Shown one piece after another: positions 8,080 through 26,227 of a stretch of 64,000 nt of DNA (within the stretch, counting starts at the first letter, position 1; each line of letters opens with the position of its first letter). The stretch lies in assembly GCF_054482525.1 (NCBI RefSeq), contig NZ_CM137006.1. One strand, written 5' to 3'. The notes below the pieces were generated by a model. That model had not been told where the DNA came from. It saw only the letters and a program-made list of their open reading frames with translations, and did no database searches. The translations under genes and the position numbers were made by a program.

Positions 8080-11000
8080 TTTCTTATTCCTCTCGATGTT
8101 CTCTGTTTCATTTTAGCTAAAATTTCACCCAAATCATCTATCCCTGCTGTTGCTGGCCCATCGGGTTTATTAATGTCTGGGAATAAATAGGGTTCTGCAC
8201 AAGTATATCCTGGTGGTAATTGAGTTGTTGGCCAAGTTGTCTGTGGCAGGTAATCACTTGCTGTCTTTGTCTCCATCCCTGGATACTGGGGATCATCCTG
8301 CGGCGTACAAGTCAGATTGGGTTTTACCCACTTCCTGCAATACAGTGTGTAATCGTAAGGACTTAATGCTCTGAAGAATGTTTTGAAAACATTAGGCGCA
8401 CTACTGGCCTGGTCAATAGGATATGGCAGTCTTAATTGTTTCGCTATGTCTGGCAACTTACTTGGATCGGGCGTAGGCGGTTTGTTGGGTCTCGCTCCAT
8501 ATCCGCCATTATTTAAGTGTCCATATTTAGATGCCAGTCCCATTGAATCTATATACTGAACCGGATTTAACGGATACTGATAAAAATTCCATCCCCCCTT
8601 CAGTCCAATCGGATCCTGAGTGATATACCGCCCCTGCAGCGGGTCATAATAGCGGTGGCGGTTGTAATACAGGCCTGACTCCTCATCATACTGCTGACCC
8701 GGCAGGCGGATGAGCTGCTGCAGCTGGTGCGGGTTATCCTCACTCAGCTGGTTACCCCATTCATCGTATTCTGCGTACCATTCTGTTGCCCCTTCCGTGC
8801 TGACAAGCGCCAGCGGCAGGCCGCGATGGTCGCAGTGGTACAGGTGGATTTTTCGCGCCGGCGTGTACACCGGGTCCATCTGGTTTTGCATCTGCTCCAC
8901 CGTCAGGCCGCACGATGCCAGCCAGCGGCGGCTTTCCTCACTCACCCGGTCAGTAAGGATTTCACTTTCCAGCCGGTCGAGCATCTGCACCAGCACCGGC
9001 GGGAACACCACATCACCACCGTCTTCACCGCCGGACTGCTGAAGCGCATCCGCCAGGCTGCGGCGCTGCGTTTTCGCCAGCTCACCGGTGGCAGTTTCAA
9101 CTCTGATGAGTGGCGTGAAGCTCCCCGGCTGATAAACCGTCTGGATGCGGGTTCTGTCGTTCTGTATCGTGGTCAGCCGGTCGCCGTCCCAGCCGTACCA
9201 GGTCACTTCCGGTTTCCGTGACAGCGACATCCAGCCCGTCAGGTCCCGTTCACGCCGCCACACCCGTTTTGCCACCCTGCGGCCCAGCGGGTCGTAAAGA
9301 TAGCGACTTTCGACCAGCGGCTCTGCATATTGTGTCCGCGTGTAGTGCACCAGCCGGTGCTGACTGTCGTAATGGTACTGGTGAGTCCGCTCATCATCCG
9401 TGCGGATAACCCCTTCCGGGATGAGGTCGGTTTTCTCTGTCAGCCTGCCGTGACGGTCATACCGGTAAAGATAGTGCGCGTCACGGGCGATACGGTTATC
9501 CGGCCACATGCTGAGGGTGCTGTCCGGGTGCAGCTCCGGGTCGGGCAGGCGGTTACCTGCCGGGTCTGTGGCATACGGGATGCGGATATCAAGGTTCGCT
9601 GCCGTGGTGTGAACGCCGGTCAGCCTGCCGGAGTCGCTGTAGCTGTAACTCCGGGTCTGGCGCGGGCTGCTGATGCGGATGAGTTCGCCGTTGTCGTTCC
9701 AGGTGTAATCGCGGTCATACTGCAGGCTGTTCAGATGCTGGCTCTGTAACTGCCCGGCAGGGGTGTAAGCGGTGGTGAGTTCATAACGGCCGAAGCTGCG
9801 CAGCGTTTCCCGGTGCAGGCGGTCGCGGGTGAAATCCACCAGCGGTGTGTCGCCGAGTTTCATGCCTGACAGCCAGCCGCTGCCGTAGGTCAGCCATTCC
9901 ACGGCGGGCAGGCTGTCCGGTATACAGCGGTTCGCCAGTCCCTGCGCGTTGTAAGCGTGTCTGGTTTCATGCTGCCAGAGCAGTGCTTCCGTCTGCGGGT
10001 GATGCACCGTCTGGCGCTCACCGGTCAGGCGGCCTTTCTCATCATACCCGTAATGCACCGTCACCCGGTGGCCTTCGCTGAGATGGCTGATTTGTGTCAG
10101 CCAGCCGCGTTCGTCATACTGCCACTGCTCTGCCGGTTCACCCTTCACGGTGCGGTGAGTGAGGCGGTCTGCTTCGTCATAGTGCCAGTGGGTGACCAGC
10201 CCCTCATCCTCGCTGCGGATAAGTTTGCCGGTCAGGTCGTGGTGATAACGCTGTGTGCGGCCGTCAAAGCCGGTTTCCTGTATCAGCCGGTCAAGTACAT
10301 CGTAACGGAAGGTGGTGTGGCTGCCGTTTTCACTGGTCAGGCGGATGACCCGTCCGGCAGCATCGTATTCCATACTGCGCGTCAGACCGCCCTGCGTGGT
10401 ACGGATGGCCTTTCCCCACGCATCGTACTGTGTCCCGTTTCTGCTGCCGTCCGGGGCAATGACGGCGGTCAGGTCACCGGCGGCGTTGTATTCATACCGC
10501 GTTTCATGGCCCTGCATGTCTTTCACCGCAATTAACTGTCCACGGCTGTCGTATGCGCGGTACTGGCTCAGGCCTTCCTCGCGGTGCACCGCCGTCACCT
10601 GACCAAAACGGTCATGGTCATAACGGGTTACATAACCGGAACAGTCAGTGACGGTCAGCAACTGACCGTAACGGCTCCATGTCATGGTTTTCCGGCTGCC
10701 GGTGGCATCCTCCGTTGCGCAGGGTAAGTCACTGTGTGGATTATCATAACGGTAGCGGGTGATATCGCCGTCAGGGGCAGTTTCCTGAATCAGACGGCCG
10801 GATTCATCATATTCCCGGCGTATTTCCAGCCCGTCAGTCCCGGTGGCTGACGTTAACTGGCTGTGGTGGTTATAGTAAAACGCCGATGCCCTGCCATCCG
10901 GCGTGGTGATGCGCGTGATGAGGCCCGTCACCACATCCGGGCTGTATTCTGTTGTCCGGCCTGCGGCATCCGTCTGTGCCTTAAGCCTGCCCACCGCATC

Positions 11001-12263
11001 AAACTGACTCTGCGTGACGCTGCCGTCCGCGTGTTCCTTTTTCACCACCCGCTTCAGCCCGCCTTCGCCCTGCGTGTGCAGCACTTCACGGCGGTCCAGA
11101 CTGTCGGTGATGGTGATGCGGTCTTTCTCATACTGATACGTGTAGCTTAAGCCTGCCGGGTTTAGCTGCTCTGTCACCCGCCCGTCGCTGTCGTAACGGT
11201 AACGGATTTCCGGCCGGCCCGTGTGACGGTGCGCCACCATCCGGCCCCGGTATTTATCATCGTAAGTAAAGCTGCGCACCTGTGTATTGCTGCGGTCATA
11301 CACCGCCGCCAGTTCGCCGCGCGGCGTCCAGCCATAGCGTACCAGCGGCGCGGCTGGCAGGTTATCCGGATATTCCGGGTCGTGCGTCAGCCACACGGCA
11401 GACAGACGGATGCCGTTGTCCCGGCCATATTCGGTGTAACCCGGCAGGGTATCAGGAAAAGCGGACGGTTCCGTCCCGCCGGAAATGGCCTGCTGCCGGG
11501 CTTCTTCTGCCCGCTGCGCCTGCGTGGTCAGTACCAGCCGGAAGTGACGCCCGGCACCATCCGTCACGCCGCTGAATTCGCCGCCAGCCTCACGGTGGAA
11601 CGTCTGTGTGCGCCCGAAGCGGTCCACCAGCCCGGTCAGTACCCGGTACGGCGGCAGCGGCGCAGGCAGCACCTCATCCGCCTCCGGCACCCGCTCACAC
11701 CAGCCGAGTACCCACCACGGCCCCTGCGGACTGTTCGTCGCCAGATAACGATGCGGACTCAGGCGAAGCTCTTCCGGCAGCGCCTGCCAGAGTGCGGCCA
11801 GCCGGTGACCTTCATCCAGTTTCGCCACGCCGCCACGCACCAGCCAGAGTGACTCGCTGCGGCTGTAACCGTCCTCACCGGGAAACAGGTGCTCAAAATA
11901 CAGGCTCCTGCCGCCGTTATCACTGAGTATCAGTGTGTTATCGCGCAGCTGTAAGCGGATATCCGCGGGCATTTTCCAGCCGGGGCCGAGGCTCCCCACC
12001 GGCGCGGGCGTTTTTGTCCGGTAACTGCTGTAGGTGCGGGAGAGGATGAACGGCAGCGGGCCGGGCAGGGCAAGGTCGGTTTCGCCGGGAAGGACCTTCG
12101 CGCCGAGCAGCGGATTGACCGGATGGCCGGACGTCACCCCGCCGGGGCACACCGAACAGGCCACGCCGGTGGGGGCACCGATGCGCACCCCGGCTGAACC
12201 CTGAACAATGCTACCGCCATACTGCGTCATGTCGCCCTGACGCGCCGCCGGTTTTCCGCTCAT
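8076..12263 (-). CDS. rhsA: Rhs-family polymorphic toxin: PAAR-like N-terminus, YD-repeat core, variant C-terminal tip
   Basis: 1395-aa ORF beginning [29 protein letters not shown], repeated YD/RY motifs, conserved [15 protein letters not shown] near the end followed by a ~170-aa proline-rich tip; sits beside yibF as rhsA does in K-12; GC-rich core. Confidence 0.95.
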
Positions 12264-17849: not shown

Positions 17850-17971
17850 TAGTTATCTCTGTAATCCTTGCCCGTAAATTCGTGATAGCCGTCGTAAAGC
17901 TATCACCAGTTGGCGAAGATTTCGCCAGCCACGTCTACCCTTGTTATACCTCACACCGCAAGGAGACGATC

Positions 17972-19510
17972 ATGACCAATAATCCCCCTTCAGCACAGAT
18001 TAAGCCCGGCGAGTATGGTTTTCCTCTTAAGTTAAAAGCCCGTTATGACAACTTTATCGGCGGCGAGTGGGTAGCCCCTGCCGACGGCGAGTATTACCAG
18101 AACCTGACGCCGGTGACCGGGCAGCTGCTGTGCGAAGTGGCGTCTTCGGGCAAACGAGACATCGATCTGGCGCTGGATGCTGCGCACAAAGTGAAAGATA
18201 AATGGGCGCATACTTCGGTGCAGGATCGCGCGGCGATTCTGTTTAAGATCGCCGATCGGATGGAGCAGAACCTCGAACTGTTAGCGACCGCTGAAACCTG
18301 GGATAACGGCAAACCCATTCGCGAAACCAGTGCTGCCGATGTGCCGCTGGCGATTGACCATTTCCGCTATTTCGCCTCGTGTATTCGGGCGCAGGAAGGC
18401 GGTATTAGTGAAGTGGATAGCGAAACCGTGGCTTATCACTTCCACGAACCGTTAGGCGTGGTGGGGCAGATTATTCCGTGGAACTTCCCGCTGCTGATGG
18501 CGAGCTGGAAAATGGCCCCCGCGCTGGCGGCGGGCAACTGTGTGGTGCTGAAACCCGCACGTCTTACCCCGCTTTCTGTACTGCTGCTAATGGAAATCGT
18601 CGGTGATTTACTGCCGCCAGGCGTGGTGAACGTGGTCAACGGTGCAGGTGGGGAAATTGGCGAATATCTGGCGACCTCGAAACGCATCGCTAAAGTGGCG
18701 TTTACCGGCTCAACGGAAGTGGGCCAACAAATTATGCAATACGCTACGCAAAACATTATTCCGGTAACCCTGGAGCTGGGCGGCAAATCGCCAAATATCT
18801 TCTTTGCTGATGTGATGGATGAAGAAGATGCCTTTTTCGATAAAGCGCTGGAAGGCTTTGCACTGTTTGCCTTTAACCAGGGCGAAGTTTGCACCTGTCC
18901 AAGCCGTGCTTTAGTACAGGAGTCTATCTACGAACGCTTTATGGAACGCGCCATCCGCCGTGTCGAAAGCATTCGTAGCGGTAACCCACTCGACAGCGTG
19001 ACGCAAATGGGTGCGCAGGTATCTCACGGGCAACTGGAAACCATCCTCAATTACATTGATATCGGCAAAAAAGAGGGCGCAGACGTGCTCACCGGCGGGC
19101 GGCGCAAGCTGCTGGAAGGCGAACTGAAAGACGGCTACTACCTTGAACCGACTATTTTGTTTGGTCAGAACAATATGCGGGTGTTCCAGGAGGAGATATT
19201 TGGCCCGGTGCTGGCGGTGACCACCTTCAAAACGATGGAAGAAGCGCTGGAGCTGGCGAACGATACGCAATATGGCCTGGGCGCGGGCGTCTGGAGCCGC
19301 AACGGTAATCTGGCCTATAAGATGGGGCGCGGCATTCAGGCTGGGCGCGTGTGGACCAACTGTTATCACGCTTACCCGGCACATGCGGCGTTTGGCGGCT
19401 ACAAACAGTCGGGCATCGGACGCGAAACCCATAAGATGATGCTTGAGCATTACCAGCAAACCAAGTGCCTGCTGGTGAGCTACTCGGATAAACCGTTGGG
19501 GCTGTTCTGA
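17972..19510 (+). CDS. aldB: NAD(P)-dependent aldehyde dehydrogenase B
   Basis: Translation from ATG at 17972 ([33 protein letters not shown]...) gives 512 aa with ALDH motifs (ELGGKSP, catalytic Cys region); the 30 upstream codons of the ORF track are an extension. Confidence 0.93.
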
Positions 19511-19516
19511 TGTGAA

Positions 19517-19552
19517 AGGCAGGCAACGTTAATAGTTGTCTGCCTTTGTTTT
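19517..19552 (+). terminator. Rho-independent terminator after aldB, shared with the convergent gene
   Basis: Stem aggcaggcaac / gttgtctgcct (one mismatch) with gttaata loop followed by ttgtttt; the stop of the minus-strand 359-aa gene lies in the T-run. Confidence 0.6.
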
Positions 19553-20630
19553 AGTTGTATAAAGCGGCAGTCGCTTTTAACTCATCGCTGAAAGAATAAA
19601 TATCATCGAGAGATTCAATAGGATGGCGGGTTTCGTTTTTCTCTAAGTCAAATAAACCAATATATTTTTGATTTCGATTGAAATGTAATCTACAGAGTGG
19701 TTTTCGATTATTGTCATCTACAAGTATACCAAAATAGCTTTTTGTATCTCTGTGGACTATTCGTGGTGCATCAAGCACTACGCGGACTATAGCTTTAACA
19801 ATATGAAATCCTTCAAGTTCCTCCATAGTAGTGGCAATATCGGTTTCTTCTTTATTAATACATTCTACTTCCTCATTGTGTGAATTCGAATCAATTACAG
19901 ATAATGACCCACCACCTATTGCCGATTTCAATCTTTCGTTTATTTGAGAGCCAATATATTGATTGGCAGCTTTCTTTGTTAATTTTGCAAACGTATCTTT
20001 TACCTTTTGTGTTAACATACCTTCATAAATTCTTGCTGCAAAGAATTTTACAAAATCCTCTTCAGGATTATTCATTTGTGCATGGAGAACTTTTTTAATT
20101 AAACTAACATATTTTAATTCACCTGCAGCATTAATTATTGATTCCAAATCAAATGCTGATTTAGTAAGCTTTTTTATCTCGGGAACAACTGTTTCGTCTA
20201 AGTCAAGTAGATCTATCTCAAGAAATGGTTTTTCATCCATTTTATTAGGTGCTTCTAAATCAGTAAAAAATTTATAAACTTGTCCATTGGTTAGAATAGA
20301 TATTCTTGCATTTGTTACATGAAAGTATCGAAAAAGCTGTGAAGCATGATTTATATTTAGAGGATCACCAATTTTTTTGCATTCAATGAGAATCTGAACC
20401 TCGCTATTTTTTAAGATTGCATAGTCAATCTTTTCACCTTTCTTCGTTCCAATATCGCATACAAACTCTGGGATAACTTCGGTAGGATCAAAGACATCAT
20501 AACCTAACACATTGTTAATGAACGGCATTACGAAAGCATTTTTGGTAGCTTCCTCCGTTTCAATGACTCCGGCTTGTTGTTTTATTTTTGCGGATAATGA
20601 ATTCAGCTTATCTATAAACTCCATAGACAT
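19551..20630 (-). CDS. Uncharacterised 359-aa protein with N-terminal PD-(D/E)xK (HsdR-N-like) nuclease-fold domain; candidate defence gene
   Basis: ATG with AAGGAG RBS; N-terminal ~120 aa contain PEF...KIDYAIL...ILIECKK (E-D-ExK arrangement typical of HsdR N-terminal/Mrr-like nuclease domains); helical middle; unassigned C-terminal region VVLDAPRIVHRDTKSYFGILVDDNNRKPLCRLHFNRN; visibly AT-rich gene. Confidence 0.75.
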   Translation of the reverse strand: MSMEFIDKLNSLSAKIKQQAGVIETEEATKNAFVMPFINNVLGYDVFDPTEVIPEFVCDIGTKKGEKIDYAILKNSEVQILIECKKIGDPLNINHASQLFRYFHVTNARISILTNGQVYKFFTDLEAPNKMDEKPFLEIDLLDLDETVVPEIKKLTKSAFDLESIINAAGELKYVSLIKKVLHAQMNNPEEDFVKFFAARIYEGMLTQKVKDTFAKLTKKAANQYIGSQINERLKSAIGGGSLSVIDSNSHNEEVECINKEETDIATTMEELEGFHIVKAIVRVVLDAPRIVHRDTKSYFGILVDDNNRKPLCRLHFNRNQKYIGLFDLEKNETRHPIESLDDIYSFSDELKATAALYN

Positions 20631-21072
20631 TATAACTCCTTTTATATATATTTAATAAAAATGCGTTTGATAAAAATATAGAAAATATTTATATATTAAC
20701 GCCTTATCATTGGTCATAGTTAATGTATAACACACAAAAAATAATGTTTGCACATTGTAAATACAATGGTGAAACAAACTTGATATTTATCAAGAAAATA
20801 AAACAATGTCTTTTATTGGTTGTTTTAAACGTCCAATGAATACGAGTTGGAGCTATAGCAAGACTAGCTTCGATATCGCATGGATAATCTAATACAGATT
20901 TTTTAACACCTAATACTATGAGTTATATGTAAATTGCGAGCATCCTCGCATCTTTTCAACAAGTTACTGCACACCGTTATTCTCCTTCCGAGCGAGTCAA
21001 CTTTATCCCCCTGACGGCCCATATAAATCGCGCTATCGTGATTGTTATCGCTAATTGTGTGTGTATCGTGTG

Positions 21073-21095: not shown

Positions 21096-21281
21096 GTGAA
21101 AAGTGCAGACGTGATCGCTATCCTGAAGCAGCATGGCTGGGAACATATTCGAACCCGTGGCAGTCATCATCAGTTCCGCCACCCTGTTCATCCGGGTCTG
21201 GTGACGGTTCCGCACCCTAAAAAAGATATTAAGCCCGGTACGCTGGCGCAAATTGGGCGTCAGGCTGGTTTAACATTTTAA
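21096..21281 (+). CDS. hicA: HicA-family mRNA interferase toxin
   Basis: 61-aa ORF (GTG start) with GSHHQFRHP...HPKKDIKPGTLAQIGRQAGL, the HicA/YcfA-like signature; followed by hicB. Confidence 0.8.
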   Translation: MKSADVIAILKQHGWEHIRTRGSHHQFRHPVHPGLVTVPHPKKDIKPGTLAQIGRQAGLTF

Positions 21282-21297
21282 AATTTCAGGAGGCAAT

Positions 21298-21708
21298 ATG
21301 TTTTATCCCGCCTATATCCACAGTGATCCTGACGGCAGCGCCAGCGGTTTTTTCCCTGATGTTCCAGGCTGTTATTTTGCTGGTGATACGCTGGACAACG
21401 CTTTCCAGGATGCGCGAAGTGCACTTGTCGCGCACTTCGAAACCTTATGCGAGATGAATGAAGAGTTGCCGCTTCCAGGCTCTGTGGAAACACATCTGGT
21501 CCAGCGTGCGCAGGACTTTATTGGCGGGCAATGGTTGCTGGTGGATATCAATATGAATCAGTTCGAAGGTCGGGCTGAACGTATCAATATTACGATGCCG
21601 AAAAGATTACTGAACAAGATTGATACCTACGTGCGCAATAACCCAGACTACGCCAACAGAAGTGCGTTTCTGGCGGAAGCTGCCCGGCGTGTATTGCCGG
21701 GCGCTTAA
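21298..21708 (+). CDS. hicB: HicB-family antitoxin with C-terminal DNA-binding region
   Basis: 136-aa ORF 17 bp downstream of hicA; N-terminal HicB-like fold sequence and C-terminal RHH-like segment (ITMPKRLLNKIDTYV...AFLAEAARRVL). Confidence 0.8.
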   Translation: MFYPAYIHSDPDGSASGFFPDVPGCYFAGDTLDNAFQDARSALVAHFETLCEMNEELPLPGSVETHLVQRAQDFIGGQWLLVDINMNQFEGRAERINITMPKRLLNKIDTYVRNNPDYANRSAFLAEAARRVLPGA

Positions 21709-21779: not shown

Positions 21780-23744
21780 TCATGCGCTGGTTTCCTCATT
21801 CACCCAGATCCGCATTTCGCCTTCACCCCGGTTAGCCCAGCTAAACCACGGGATAAATGTCAGAGTTTGCGGCTGGCGTTTGGCTGGGGCATAGTCGTAA
21901 TGCCACAGCGGTTGCTGCTCTGGATTGCTCTGTTCATACCGGTAACCCGGTGCCTGGATTAAGATCTTATGGCGGAACAATCCTTTGCCTTCAAATGTCG
22001 TAAATGGCGCATCGGCGGGCAGCCACAGGTTATGCAGTGACTCGCCGTTGTCGGCCTGTTCCAGGCAATACACCAGCGGGCCGCGCTGAATCGCCACTTT
22101 TCCGGCGACGTGACGCACCAGCGGGTTACCGTAAACGCGACGTACCGGCATTGGCAAAGTCAGATTCAGCGTGTCACCCTCCTGCCATTCGCGGGTAATG
22201 TGCAAATACCCTTTACGAATATCCTGCTCGACCTCTTCCCCATTCAATATGATCTGCGGCTGTGTGCACCAGTCCGGCAGACGTAAAGCCAGCGTATGAC
22301 GTACCGGCTGGGGCGATTCGACCGCAATCGTCACCTGCTCCTGCCACGGATAGTTCCCGCTAACCCGCAGGCGCAACGTGCCATTTTCTACCGGCACTTC
22401 CATGCTGTTTCCTGCGTAGATGTTGATATACAACGCATCTTCACGCGGCGTGTAGAGATAATGACCAATCGAGGTCAGCACGCGGGCGATATTTGGCGGA
22501 CAACAAGCGCAGCCAAACCAACGCTGGCGGATCGGTTTAACGTGATCGTAGATATGGTTGAATTTCAGCGATTTTGGATGTACTTCCAGCGGATTCACAT
22601 AGAAGAAATGTTTGCCATCCAGTGCCATGCCGCCGAGCACAGTGTTGTACAGCGCGCGCTCCATCACATCGGCATATTGACTGTCGCCTTCCATTTCCAG
22701 CATTCGCCGGGCGAACATCATCAGGCCGATGGAAGCACAGCTTTCGGCGTATACCGTGTCATTCGGCAGATCGTAATCGCTGCTGAACGCTTCGCCGCTG
22801 CTTTGTGAGCCAATGCCGCCGGTAATATATAACTGACGCTGGGCCATATTGTTCCACAGCCGCAGGCAATCCTGACGCTTGCTTTCATCGTGACTTAAAC
22901 GCGCCAGATGTGCGACGCCAGTCATCAGATATACAAAGCGTACTGCATGTCCGATGGCGGTTTGTTGCTGTGCGATGGGCAAATGCGCCTGGCTGTAGGC
23001 TTTATCTTTCACCATCCACGCCGGGCCGTAGGTGTGCCAGTGCGAGGTCTGCCCGCGCTTTTCATATTCCTGGTCGTAATAGTGCGGTTGCGCACCACGC
23101 TGTTCGACAAAATAGTTCGTCAGCGCCAGGTAGCGCGGCTCTTCGGTCACTTCATACAGGCGCATTAGTGCCAGTTCAATTTCCGGGTGACCAGGATAAC
23201 CGTGTAACTTACTTTCACCTGGACCAAATACGCTGTCGATATGATCGGCCAGACGGCAAACCACTTCCAGCAAGCGCCGCTTGCCCGTGGCCTGGAAGAA
23301 GGCGACTCCGGCTTCAATCAGATGACCGGCGCAGTAAAGTTCATGACACTCTGCCAGATTGCTCCAGCGTTCTTCGGGTGCTTTTACCGTAAAGTAAGTA
23401 TTGAGATAGCCATCTTCGCACTGGGCGGAAGCGACCAGTTCGATTACCTCGTCGGCGGTTTTTTCCAGTTCGGCGTCCGGCTTCTGGCACAGCGACCAGG
23501 CTACCGCTTCCAGCCATTTGGCGACGTCGCTGTCCTGAAACACCATCCCGTAAAATTCACCCTCCTGAAGTCCGGCGGCAATGCGAAAGTTTTCAATCGC
23601 ATGGCTGGGTTCCGCTTCTGGGATACGATCGTTCAAGGCATCCCACTGATAAGGAATCACCACGTCGCGGACCAGTTGTTGGTACTGACCGAGGAACGGA
23701 TCGCTGACCGTCAGTTTATGCAGATCGACTTCCGAAATGTTCAT
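21780..23744 (-). CDS. Glycoside hydrolase family 127 (DUF1680, beta-L-arabinofuranosidase-like) protein
   Basis: 654-aa translation from ATG at 23744 (MNISEVDLHKL...) with perfect AAGGAG RBS; Cys-rich C-terminal CACCPPN motif and overall similarity pattern to HypBA1-type enzymes as recalled; ORF-track 670-aa version is an extension. Confidence 0.75.
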   Translation of the reverse strand: MNISEVDLHKLTVSDPFLGQYQQLVRDVVIPYQWDALNDRIPEAEPSHAIENFRIAAGLQEGEFYGMVFQDSDVAKWLEAVAWSLCQKPDAELEKTADEVIELVASAQCEDGYLNTYFTVKAPEERWSNLAECHELYCAGHLIEAGVAFFQATGKRRLLEVVCRLADHIDSVFGPGESKLHGYPGHPEIELALMRLYEVTEEPRYLALTNYFVEQRGAQPHYYDQEYEKRGQTSHWHTYGPAWMVKDKAYSQAHLPIAQQQTAIGHAVRFVYLMTGVAHLARLSHDESKRQDCLRLWNNMAQRQLYITGGIGSQSSGEAFSSDYDLPNDTVYAESCASIGLMMFARRMLEMEGDSQYADVMERALYNTVLGGMALDGKHFFYVNPLEVHPKSLKFNHIYDHVKPIRQRWFGCACCPPNIARVLTSIGHYLYTPREDALYINIYAGNSMEVPVENGTLRLRVSGNYPWQEQVTIAVESPQPVRHTLALRLPDWCTQPQIILNGEEVEQDIRKGYLHITREWQEGDTLNLTLPMPVRRVYGNPLVRHVAGKVAIQRGPLVYCLEQADNGESLHNLWLPADAPFTTFEGKGLFRHKILIQAPGYRYEQSNPEQQPLWHYDYAPAKRQPQTLTFIPWFSWANRGEGEMRIWVNEETSA

Positions 23745-23754
23745 CTTGTGCTCC

Positions 23755-25155
23755 TTAAGGCTGTACATGACGCTGACGCAGGTCGCTAGCAATGCGTGAC
23801 ATCATAGGGTTATTGAGTTTGCAAAAGCGGATCGCCCCTGCCAGCAGCAGGTGGAATAGCGCAGGCAGTAATGTTTCCATCGCCGCGATGCCGCCAAGCG
23901 AACTGGCGGTCTGGTTTTCCACGCCAGGCTGGTAGGCGACAAAAATAAACAGCAGGCTGATGATCCCGGCGCTGGAGGCCCAGGCCAGTTTGATGAAAAA
24001 CAGATTGAAGGCGAAGTTCATGCCGGAAGAACGTACGCGGGTTTTCCACTCGCCGTAGTCATCGGCAAAGGCCATCAATGAGAAGTGCAGTGGCAATGTG
24101 AAGCCAAGAATCACGCCATTACCGAGGATCACCGCCAGCCACAGCGTTTGATAAGCCGGGCCGGAGGGCAGGAACCACATCAACACCGCCAGTGAAGCGA
24201 GGAGCAGGTTGGTGTAGTAATAAATTTTGACGGTATCGAAACGTCGCGTTAACGGGCTGACAATCACCGAGCCGATAATGGAGGCGAAGGTGACCATAGT
24301 GAAGAACAGCGACGTGTAGCCCGTACTGCCTTGTAAGACGTAGGTAATAAAGTACATATACCCACCGCCGCGAATATTAAAGACGTTAATCAGCAGGAAA
24401 GACATGACCAGCATCAGCAGCAGTTGGTCGTTGTTCCGCAGCCCGGCAAGATGTTCGCGCAGGGTAAATTTCCCCATTGTGGAGAGCGGCACCCGTTCAC
24501 GAACCCAGAAGAAACAGCACAGTAACATCACCACGGCAATGGCGCACAATACGCCGACGCCCAGTTGATAGCCGCGCGCGGCATTACCCTGACCGAAGAG
24601 ATCTACCATCCACGGTAAGCCTACCGAAACCAGAAATCCCGCCACGCCGCAGAGAACGAATCGCCAGGACTGGCAGGAGATCACTTCATTGTGGCGGGTG
24701 GTCATGGTGTTGATCAGCGCGCAGTACGGCACGTTGATGGCGGTATAACCGACTGAAAGGAGCAGGTAAGTGCCGAACGCCCAGGCGATTTTTACTCCCA
24801 TGCTGGCATCTGGCACGGTGAACGTCAGGATGCCGATAATGCCGATGGGAATGGCAATCCACAACTGCCACGGACGAAAGCGCCCCCAGCGACTTTGCGT
24901 CCGGTCGGCAATGACGCCCATCACCGGGTCGGAGATGGCATCAAACACGCGCAGTGCAATAAACAGCGTGCCGACCAGCGCCGGAGTTAAGCCAAAAACG
25001 TCGGTGTAGAAAAAGGTGAGAAAGTTCATGATCAGGCAAGTTATTACGGTGCCGCCTGCGTCACCCAGGCCGTAGCCTATTTTTTCCCGTACAGATAACG
25101 CATCGTCAATTTTACCTTTAGCGATATCAGCGGTAGTAATCGGTGTAGAGGTCAT
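23755..25155 (-). CDS. GPH-family (glycoside-pentoside-hexuronide:cation) symporter
   Basis: 466-aa ORF with 12 predicted hydrophobic segments and MelB/YicJ-like N-terminus ([10 protein letters not shown]...[21 protein letters not shown]). Confidence 0.8.
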
Positions 25156-25380
25156 AGATATTCCTCGTGAATAGGGAGCAATTTTTAGTTTTATTGCAAT
25201 GACCTGATTAATTCTGCCGTGAACGGGAATATCAACAAGGCGAGAAAAGAGTAAAAAAAGGTGACGATTCCGACCTGAATTTAAAAGTGTGAAATGGATC
25301 AGGTGAAATTAATGTTTTTGATTAATAATCAAAAGGTAATGTGTTTAATCATTAATGAATAAGCGGGAAATTACATATCA

Positions 25381-26196
25381 ATGCTCGAATTATCCATGAC
25401 GTTACCGATTAAAGTGCAAAATGGTGGATTATTTATTTCCCGTGGCGTAGGGAGGCATCCGGCAAGGCGGCTGGAGTCATGGGAAATTATCTTTGTCGAA
25501 AAAGGTCGATTAGCGATTCAGGAAGAAGAGCGGATATTTCTGGTCGATGCGGGAGAGAGTTTATTACTCTGGCCGAACCGACAGCATGTTGGGGTAGAGG
25601 ATTTTCCCGCTGATCTCAAATTTTACTGGCTGCATTTTGAGGTTAAAGCGCCGGACAACGACCCGCGCTGGCTCACTCATCTTAGCGTGCCGCAACAAAC
25701 AAAGGTTGCCGATCCGCAGGCGTTGGTGGTCCTGTTTCGCCAGTTCTTAAGCGAACAGGAAAAGCATCAACGCACTCCGGCGCTGGAGTTTATTGTGCTG
25801 CTGATTTTGCAGCAACTCACCCGTGACGCGCGTCTTGATGAACAGGCCGATGCCGCAGGTACCACGCTTGCCTGGAAAGCGCAGAAACTGATCCGCACGC
25901 AATATCATCGCCCGCTTTCTACGGCGCTTTTAGCCCGCGAGCTGTACTGCAATGCCGATTATCTTGGGCGTGTCTATCGGCGGGTGTTTCATCTGACGTT
26001 AACAGAAGCAATTCATCGCCAGCGAGTGCGCGAAGCCGAAAAGCTGTTAATTAGCGAAGCGCGATCGCTCACTGAAGTGGCGGCGTTGTGCGGGTTTAAT
26101 GACGTTGGCTATTTCCGGCAGATTTTTCGCAAACACACCGGTTTAACGCCAGCTGCGTGGAAGCGACGTTACAGCAAGGAACATATCAATTCGTAG
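25381..26196 (+). CDS. AraC/XylS-family transcriptional regulator
   Basis: 271-aa ORF with C-terminal AraC-type HTH signature (LTEVAALCGFNDVGYFRQIFRKHTGLTPAAWKRR); divergent from the transporter gene. Confidence 0.8.
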   Translation: MLELSMTLPIKVQNGGLFISRGVGRHPARRLESWEIIFVEKGRLAIQEEERIFLVDAGESLLLWPNRQHVGVEDFPADLKFYWLHFEVKAPDNDPRWLTHLSVPQQTKVADPQALVVLFRQFLSEQEKHQRTPALEFIVLLILQQLTRDARLDEQADAAGTTLAWKAQKLIRTQYHRPLSTALLARELYCNADYLGRVYRRVFHLTLTEAIHRQRVREAEKLLISEARSLTEVAALCGFNDVGYFRQIFRKHTGLTPAAWKRRYSKEHINS

Positions 26197-26227
26197 TGCC
26201 GGGGCGATGAAGCCCCGGCGTGAGGGA

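Follow-up and report, generated by a model that had tools for sequence, protein, structure and literature searches.

What does a nuclease-fold gene that lies between aldB and the hicAB toxin-antitoxin pair do for the Escherichia coli strains that carry it? The gene encodes a protein of 359 amino acids (aa) and is found in a 64,000-nucleotide stretch of contig NZ_CM137006.1 (assembly GCF_054482525.1), which is referred to as the window throughout. A first examination of these letters without database searches (the sequence-only reading) had taken the gene for a candidate single-gene defence system, an interpretation that is partly supported by the present analysis. We tentatively propose, at slightly under even confidence, that the product is a self-contained restriction-like DNA endonuclease that would guard the bacterium or lysogen carrying it against incoming phage or other foreign DNA. 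This hypothesis is strengthened by the phage lysogeny-module context of its homologues.

Architecture and conservation of the nuclease

The full-length AlphaFold2 model (mean predicted local distance difference test score, pLDDT, of 90) shows four parts, with the nuclease domain ending at about residue 142. The coding sequence and the four parts are located as follows.

19551..20630, minus strand: coding sequence of the nuclease, 359 aa (WP_000061476.1), from the open reading frame listing and the annotation of E. coli PCN033
20205..20630, minus strand: HsdR/RecB-type PD-(D/E)xK nuclease domain, residues 1-142, from Pfam, conserved columns and Foldseek
19911..20204, minus strand: helical region, residues 143-240, AlphaFold2 pLDDT >90
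19845..19910, minus strand: acidic disordered linker of variable length, residues 241-262, pLDDT <50
19554..19844, minus strand: C-terminal alpha-beta5-alpha domain, residues 263-359, without a Pfam family

Pfam assigns the N-terminal part to HSDR_N_2 (residues 26-123, E = 1.8e-7) and HSDR_N (E = 1.9e-7) and reports no other domain. The top Foldseek match of the model is the HsdR fragment 3h1t, and the PDB matches are solely HsdR-type nuclease domains. The landmarks of the nuclease domain are a TEEATK helix, E55, D69, E83-x-K85, Q98-x3-Y102 and LTNG. In an alignment of 41 relatives (37-84% identity), K30, E55, D69, E83, L99, F103, G116, P135 and E271 are invariant, and the TEEATK helix, K85, Q98, R101, Y102 and LTN are near-invariant. 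Because E55, D69, E83 and K85 belong to these two sets, the E...D...ExK assignment of the sequence-only reading was right. The three motifs on which it had relied (PEF, KIDYAIL and ILIECKK) are all present in the translation, and the HsdR N-terminal-type PD-(D/E)xK fold it proposed agrees with the Pfam matches and the intact catalytic constellation. We take Q98-x3-Y102 to be the RecB-family QxxxY motif of HsdR nucleases, as known to us from published work on EcoR124I.

The remaining parts of the protein have little in common with described domains. The helical region consists of helices 146-153, 162-187, 191-201 and 208-238 in the AlphaFold2 model, is 97-99 aa long across the family, matches neither Pfam nor the PDB, and is probably a spacer or dimerisation element. 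The linker that follows it varies between 10 and 32 aa in the family, with a mean net charge of -5. When residues 263-359 are modelled alone, they adopt the alpha-beta5-alpha topology with a pLDDT of 94. This domain can be detected in relatives down to 30% identity, shows no Pfam match at E<=10 and no PDB sequence match, and is a candidate specificity or sensor module. The C-terminal region had already been described as one that could not be assigned to a known family, which holds, with a length of about 90 aa that is in fact 97 aa; the preceding helical segment had been put at about 140 aa, and is better described as about 95 aa of helices (146-238) plus a 22-aa linker (241-262). Pfam matches to SF2 translocase (ResIII/helicase) domains and to a methyltransferase domain are both absent from the 359-aa protein, and no recognised modified-base reader domain (SRA, EVE/YTH/ASCH, winged-helix, RAMA or SeqA-like) is found in the E. 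coli protein.

To place the protein in its family, we ran phmmer against 1.84 billion representatives and counted clusters at 50% identity. The search gave 5,263 relatives at E<=1e-3, of which 1,209 remain at E<=1e-30, and the best 150 of them are mostly 340-390 aa long and align end to end. Chance does not account for an open reading frame of 1,080 nucleotides that lies in DNA of 33% GC and has full-length homologues by the thousand. In the collection at 90% identity, Enterobacter, Citrobacter and Salmonella are densely covered at 77-85% identity. The protein also matches the profile phrog_4225 over its full length (E = 9.6e-130; residues 3-356 align with positions 2-352 of the 357 in the profile), whose label, "endonuclease", is an annotation with no tested function behind it. 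Among the orthologues of E. coli, Citrobacter and Enterobacter, nonsynonymous changes (pN) amount to 0.10-0.14 per site and synonymous changes (pS) are saturated at 0.77-0.85, and therefore the protein is under purifying selection.

The RefSeq name of WP_000061476.1 in PCN033, given by the Prokaryotic Genome Annotation Pipeline, is "type I restriction endonuclease", so the gene, which the sequence-only reading had called uncharacterised, is not unannotated, and its family is very common. This name, together with an HsdR N-terminal domain as the sole detected domain, would suit what is left of a broken type I hsdR gene, or a reading frame without function. Such a remnant is hardly credible in view of the thousands of relatives of about 360 aa with the same layout, the conservation of the specific C-terminal domain and the strong purifying selection; moreover, the gene has its own ribosome-binding site and terminator, and neither hsdM nor hsdS lies nearby. 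The family-wide full-length conservation has already refuted this explanation. The protein is not an hsdR fragment and matches no housekeeping protein, so that neither of the two sequence findings that would have counted against the sequence-only reading was made. Judged by its domains and neighbours, the name in RefSeq is wrong, since both the motor domains and adjacent hsdM/hsdS genes are absent.

The family is found well beyond the Enterobacteriaceae. Full-length homologues on plasmids were recovered by tblastn in Actinomycetota (55-56% identity), Rhizobium (45-48%) and other Proteobacteria (49-68%), and also in Cyanobacteria and Borreliaceae. Another 19 records with homologues are phages from Firmicutes, Actinomycetota, Bacteroidota, Fusobacteriota and Proteobacteria, and the matches in the AlphaFold database include one archaeon. 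The E. coli protein is more similar to the actinobacterial plasmid genes (55-56%) than to the rhizobial ones (45-49%). Because identity does not track taxonomy, horizontal transfer is indicated, and the distribution, which takes in plasmids, phages and archaea, is patchy and horizontal.

Homologues in prophages, plasmids and beside methyltransferases

It is evident from annotated temperate phages that the gene has a regular place. In 9 of 10 such phages the homologue lies right downstream of a CI/XRE repressor gene, with or without ImmA, and in the same orientation, and in 5 of the nine repressor-linked phages an annotated integrase follows it. The arrangement is seen in phages of Streptococcus (IPP25), Corynebacterium (Juicebox), Fusobacterium (FNU_1P), Enterococcus (EG-TP1), Acetoanaerobium (ANDSL2_ph1), Terrisporobacter (TPELB_ph1), Clostridium (CWou-2020a) and Klebsiella (KpF5), and also in the unannotated Lacticaseibacillus phage P7.1. 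The exception is formed by Porphyromonas phages, in which the homologue follows a hicA-hicB pair amid morphogenesis genes. In Porphyromonas gingivalis phage019b_ATCC49417, the homologue is immediately preceded by hicA-hicB, the pair that also adjoins the gene in E. coli; the two may have met by chance as accessory cargo, or the association may be a recurrent one.

A scan of IMG/VR recovered relatives on at least 568 viral contigs, and neighbours were analysed in the best 80 of these loci, which are interrelated and not phylogenetically independent, so that the following counts are descriptive. Neighbours belong most often to the repressor, ImmA and integrase families. Of the 73 loci whose upstream sequence is long enough, at least 43 have a repressor or ImmA gene upstream within 2 kb and co-oriented. 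Among 53 contigs of at least 20 kb, 24 have the 3' end of the gene less than 4 kb from a contig end (6.3 expected). Phage recombination and replication genes are nearby on the strand opposite to the homologue. The phage copies sit in the repressor transcription unit, the part of the prophage that is active in lysogens. The top neighbour family occurs in 13 of the 80 loci and no partner is conserved, so that the gene works alone.

The operon cI-rexA-rexB of lambda is the classic case of exclusion from a lysogeny module. The family resembles rexA-rexB-type exclusion genes in lying downstream of, and co-oriented with, a prophage repressor; in contrast, the proteins are unrelated, their mechanisms presumably are as well, and the PCN033 copy is outside a prophage. 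Other neighbours of the family include restriction, toxin-antitoxin and defence-like genes: plasmid copies are found near DUF4041, RES and Fic genes, hicAB is adjacent in E. coli and again only in the Porphyromonas phages, and in one metagenomic prophage the gene adjoins those for an EcoRI-type methylase and a GmrSD/HNH protein. Like the lysogeny-module position, such neighbours lend the defence idea support that is independent of the sequence-only reading, as do the domain fusions of some relatives described below.

Neither a methyltransferase (across the 80 viral loci and about 20 annotated contexts) nor hsdM/hsdS (across the same 80 loci) is a conserved neighbour, and no hsdM/hsdS is linked to the gene at the E. 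coli locus. This bears on the idea that the protein is one half of a split restriction-modification system, cutting unmodified DNA at specific sites and kept in check by a methyltransferase encoded elsewhere. The idea draws on the nuclease domain, which is closest to type I and type IIG enzymes, and on a distant subfamily in Borreliella: on lp36 of Borreliella valaisiana, a homologue composed of HSDR_N_2 and DUF5655 comes right after the gene for a class I S-adenosylmethionine-dependent DNA methyltransferase of about 1,280 aa. The Borreliella proteins are distant homologues (28-30% identity over the nuclease and helical region) that likewise end in an alpha/beta domain; however, that domain is DUF5655, for which homology is not demonstrable (hhalign probability 0.15%), and the methyltransferase is adjacent. 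The Borreliaceae subfamily may be part of a restriction-modification pair. For the family at large, a restriction gene that phages or plasmids brought in without its methylase would kill the recipient, and we regard the split arrangement as very improbable.

The aldB locus in Enterobacteriaceae

Apart from the coding sequence, four features were mapped at the locus.

20636..20641, minus strand: Shine-Dalgarno sequence AAGGAG, 5 nucleotides from the ATG at 20630, by direct reading
20631..20932, minus strand: AT-rich upstream region (GC about 0.29), part of the variable segment by alignment to the empty allele, within which the promoter is presumed
19515..19547: hairpin with a 13-bp stem at the convergent junction of aldB and the nuclease gene, from a terminator scan and the alignment with strain LSC52
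19515..20932: AT-rich presence/absence segment of 1.42 kb with 31.5% GC, from alignments and a genome survey

The hairpin is probably a bidirectional terminator and forms the left boundary of the variable segment. Over the tested stretch, the window is 100% identical to the chromosome of E. coli PCN033, in which the nuclease gene has aldB and hicAB as neighbours. The gene has 33.0% GC (23.9% at third codon positions, GC3) in a window of 50% GC, and GC is 0.29-0.34 over positions 19600-20999, compared with about 0.50-0.57 in the flanks. The open reading frame listing, the AAGGAG and this GC profile agree in confirming a 359-aa reading frame with a strong ribosome-binding site in AT-rich DNA, as first described. 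At 20622-20630 the protein starts MSMEF, and AAGGAG lies 5 nucleotides from M1 and 11 from M3. Because most homologues begin at the MEF/MDF position, the true start codon may be M3 rather than M1. An Rfam scan of the variable segment revealed no meaningful RNA element.

The 1.38-kb segment consisting of the gene and its upstream region is present in 191 of 5,426 complete E. coli genomes at 95-100% identity, consistent with the strain-variable slot, divergent from hicAB, that had been proposed. It is always chromosomal and occupies one place per genome except in one genome (192 places in all), and its E. coli alleles diverge by up to 5%. In E. coli without the gene, aldB and hicA are separated by some 115 bp of a REP-like spacer instead of the 1.42-kb segment; strain LSC52, for example, has aldB, the spacer and hicAB, and lacks 19515-20932. 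Strain ETEC4075 retains only 20604-20930, a deletion remnant. Citrobacter freundii carries an orthologue at the same convergent junction with aldB, with continuous nucleotide similarity over 19301-20660, and in Enterobacter the orthologue is two genes further from aldB. In all three genera the nuclease gene has 33-35% GC in host genomes of 50-53% GC.

The term insertion, used in the sequence-only reading, is doubtful on these grounds: a recent strain-specific insertion is unsupported by the junction shared with Citrobacter, the divergence of the E. coli alleles and the deletion remnant. Because Citrobacter has the gene at the same aldB junction, an old polymorphism is favoured over a fresh insertion. 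By comparison of these genomes, the gene is an old, foreign-looking resident of the aldB neighbourhood that is absent from most E. coli lineages.

Such long residence raises the question whether the protein serves its host or element in something other than immunity, either as a DNA-processing enzyme (for example by structure-specific cleavage in repair or recombination) or in maintenance or addiction of prophages and plasmids. PD-(D/E)xK/RecB-type nucleases with QxxxY also serve repair and recombination, the chromosomal site is syntenic across Escherichia, Citrobacter and Enterobacter under purifying selection, and PADLOC gives no match. We nevertheless think a non-immune function improbable: only 3.5% of E. 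coli genomes carry the gene, its AT-rich sequence looks foreign in each of the three enterobacterial genera, and it is patchy across phyla and present on plasmids. Moreover, the phage copies are grouped with the repressor and not with the recombination and replication genes of the opposite strand.

A functional unit with hicAB, whose proximity the sequence-only reading had stressed, is rejected on co-occurrence. The pair (hicA, 61 aa, and hicB, 136 aa, at 21096-21708) is itself variable at the site. It is complete in 505 of the 5,426 E. coli genomes, with partial query matches in 3,902, as against 191 genomes with the nuclease segment, and the two are therefore inherited independently in E. 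coli. LSC52 has hicAB alone, and the Citrobacter and Enterobacter orthologues are without it.

The surroundings are variable as well. Between hicAB and the sgb genes, PCN033 carries genes for a GH127 glycosidase, a major facilitator superfamily transporter and an AraC regulator (window 21780-26200). Citrobacter has genes for MipA, LysR, BSH_RND and DUF3302 proteins between GH127 and the nuclease gene, with no PCN033 match there; we assume these to be the products of the K-12 genes yiaT-yiaW. The whole aldB-sgbE interval is mosaic among Enterobacteriaceae. On the other side, the aldB reading frame (17882-19510) starts at a GTG 30 codons before the annotated start (542 vs 512 aa), and the longer version is probably an artefact of reading frame calling. 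Further away, at about 10400-12263, lies an RHS element core protein gene upstream of yibF-selAB, annotated as a pseudogene with an internal stop.

Proposed mode of action and relation to known systems

If the protein is a defence endonuclease, it would be made constitutively at a low level. Its C-terminal alpha-beta5-alpha domain, held on the helical spacer and the flexible acidic linker, would discriminate foreign from self DNA. The likeliest cue would be a base modification or another mark missing from host DNA, as in type IV restriction. Upon recognition, the nuclease domains, probably as a dimer, would cut the DNA. A mode that depends on a mark or cue would be necessary because no methyltransferase is linked and a mobile nuclease that has no methylase with it needs some way of leaving host DNA intact.

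Additional domains in some relatives bear on the nature of this cue. Of the 150 best representatives, 10 are clearly longer than the core. Among the 150, a C-terminal RAMA domain is present in one and a SeqA_C-like C-terminal extension in three (best Pfam E 9.4e-5; three SeqA structures among six weak PDB matches). RAMA and SeqA domains have been proposed to be adenine-methylation discriminators fused to restriction nucleases (Iyer, Zhang, Aravind; PMC4738411). A further three representatives carry an N-terminal TerD domain, joined by a long linker rich in Pro, Ala and Ser to the N-terminus of a complete nuclease core, an architecture that ties the family to the Ter set of stress and phage-inhibition domains. 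One representative has a cysteine-rich tail, and another has a tRNA_m1G_MT fusion with part of the N-terminus missing, which looks like a chimera or a fragment.

These data also admit a reading in which the nuclease is an abortive-infection effector, latent until a phage cue frees it to degrade host and phage DNA and kill the infected cell. The acidic linker or the C-terminal domain would then occlude the DNA cleft, and the C-terminal domain would sense a phage protein or a phage-induced state. A single gene with neither a methyltransferase nor an antitoxin partner, and with a conserved disordered acidic linker, is consistent with this. Likewise, a non-basic C-terminal domain suits a sensor of a protein or ligand at least as well as a DNA reader, the TerD fusions hint that some relatives sense stress or ions, and the lysogeny-module position is shared with classic exclusion genes. 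On the other hand, the RAMA and SeqA-like additions point to DNA marks and not to proteins, no trigger is known, and 7 of 11 nuclease-like systems were found to confer direct rather than abortive immunity (Vassallo et al., PMC9519451). We consider an abortive effector unlikely.

The proposed endonuclease can be compared with several known systems. It shares with the nuclease domain of HsdR (for example EcoR124I; HSDR_N/HSDR_N_2) the PD-(D/E)xK fold and D...ExK plus the RecB-type QxxxY; it differs in having no SF2 translocase and no HsdM/HsdS partners, and its 359 aa include helical and C-terminal alpha/beta parts of their own. Type IIG enzymes (MmeI-like) and HsdR_N-HsdM fusions likewise tether a similar nuclease domain to a recognition module, and weak PADLOC matches concern the N-termini of REase_MTase_IIG, MTase_I and MTase_II; unlike them, the family protein has no methyltransferase or target-recognition domain, either fused or adjacent. 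The combination of a nuclease with an accessory domain and no methylase is found in type IV and standalone nucleases (Mrr, DpnI-like winged-helix fusions, PD-T4-3, HEC-06 and MdgA/MdgB), and a few relatives append RAMA or SeqA-like domains, which are proposed readers. The E. coli protein and its contexts show the type IV trait of a nuclease without a cognate methyltransferase; however, it does not match the PADLOC models of these nucleases, and the accessory fold is different. Standalone nucleases have been experimentally shown to defend E. coli (PMC9519451, PMC12366544, PMC11037411), such genes without a methylase form a frequent class in functional defence screens (PMC9519451), and many of them are modification-dependent (PMC12366544).

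Several observations weigh against a defence function. In PADLOC-DB v2.0.0 the E. coli protein has no full-length model match, in line with the first impression that no named system is present. The best matches are REase_MTase_IIG (E = 3.7e-7, residues 50-181, nuclease region only) and a non-significant PDC-S26 (E = 0.046), ten diverse relatives have no significant full-length match there either, and nothing significant was found in NCBIfam. No experimental study of any family member was found in the searchable full-text literature; a comparative paper offers one correlative mention, of a 347-aa HsdR_N protein confined to a phage-resistant strain of Campylobacter jejuni (PMC8713573). Among the main weaknesses is the C-terminal domain, which is slightly acidic (family mean charge -1.2) and, not being basic, is unlike any known reader. 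In the Enterobacteriaceae, the gene has one conserved chromosomal neighbourhood by aldB, which is not a classic defence island, and it seems to have been retained over long periods. A simple scan for sigma-70 promoters gave nothing on the minus strand ahead of the gene, whose AT-rich surroundings may be subject to silencing. The relatedness of the viral loci points in the same direction.

A broader proposal is that the E. coli protein belongs to a very large, cross-phylum family of single-protein immunity nucleases, coexpressed with the repressor in temperate phages, whose C-terminal domain is a new module for telling foreign from self DNA or for sensing an infection cue. We rate this version as rather doubtful; if true, it would establish a named defence system that is new and recognises its target on a principle of its own.

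Another standalone nuclease would be no surprise to specialists; what makes this candidate worthwhile and easily testable is how large its family is and how regularly the gene stands by prophage repressors. Should it not be a defence gene, its consistent placement beside phage repressors would still need an explanation. If it truly serves defence, the known systems would gain a compact nuclease encoded by a single gene and of unusually wide occurrence: strong matches fall into about 1,200 clusters at 50% identity, and relatives are carried by plasmids, archaea and at least 568 viral contigs. A systematic misannotation as type I restriction endonuclease, of which the motor and partners are absent, would be corrected, and a C-terminal domain without a Pfam family would gain a function. 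The gene would then be routine cargo of prophage lysogeny modules, with a bearing on phage-phage exclusion, on host range in phage therapy and on barriers to DNA transfer.

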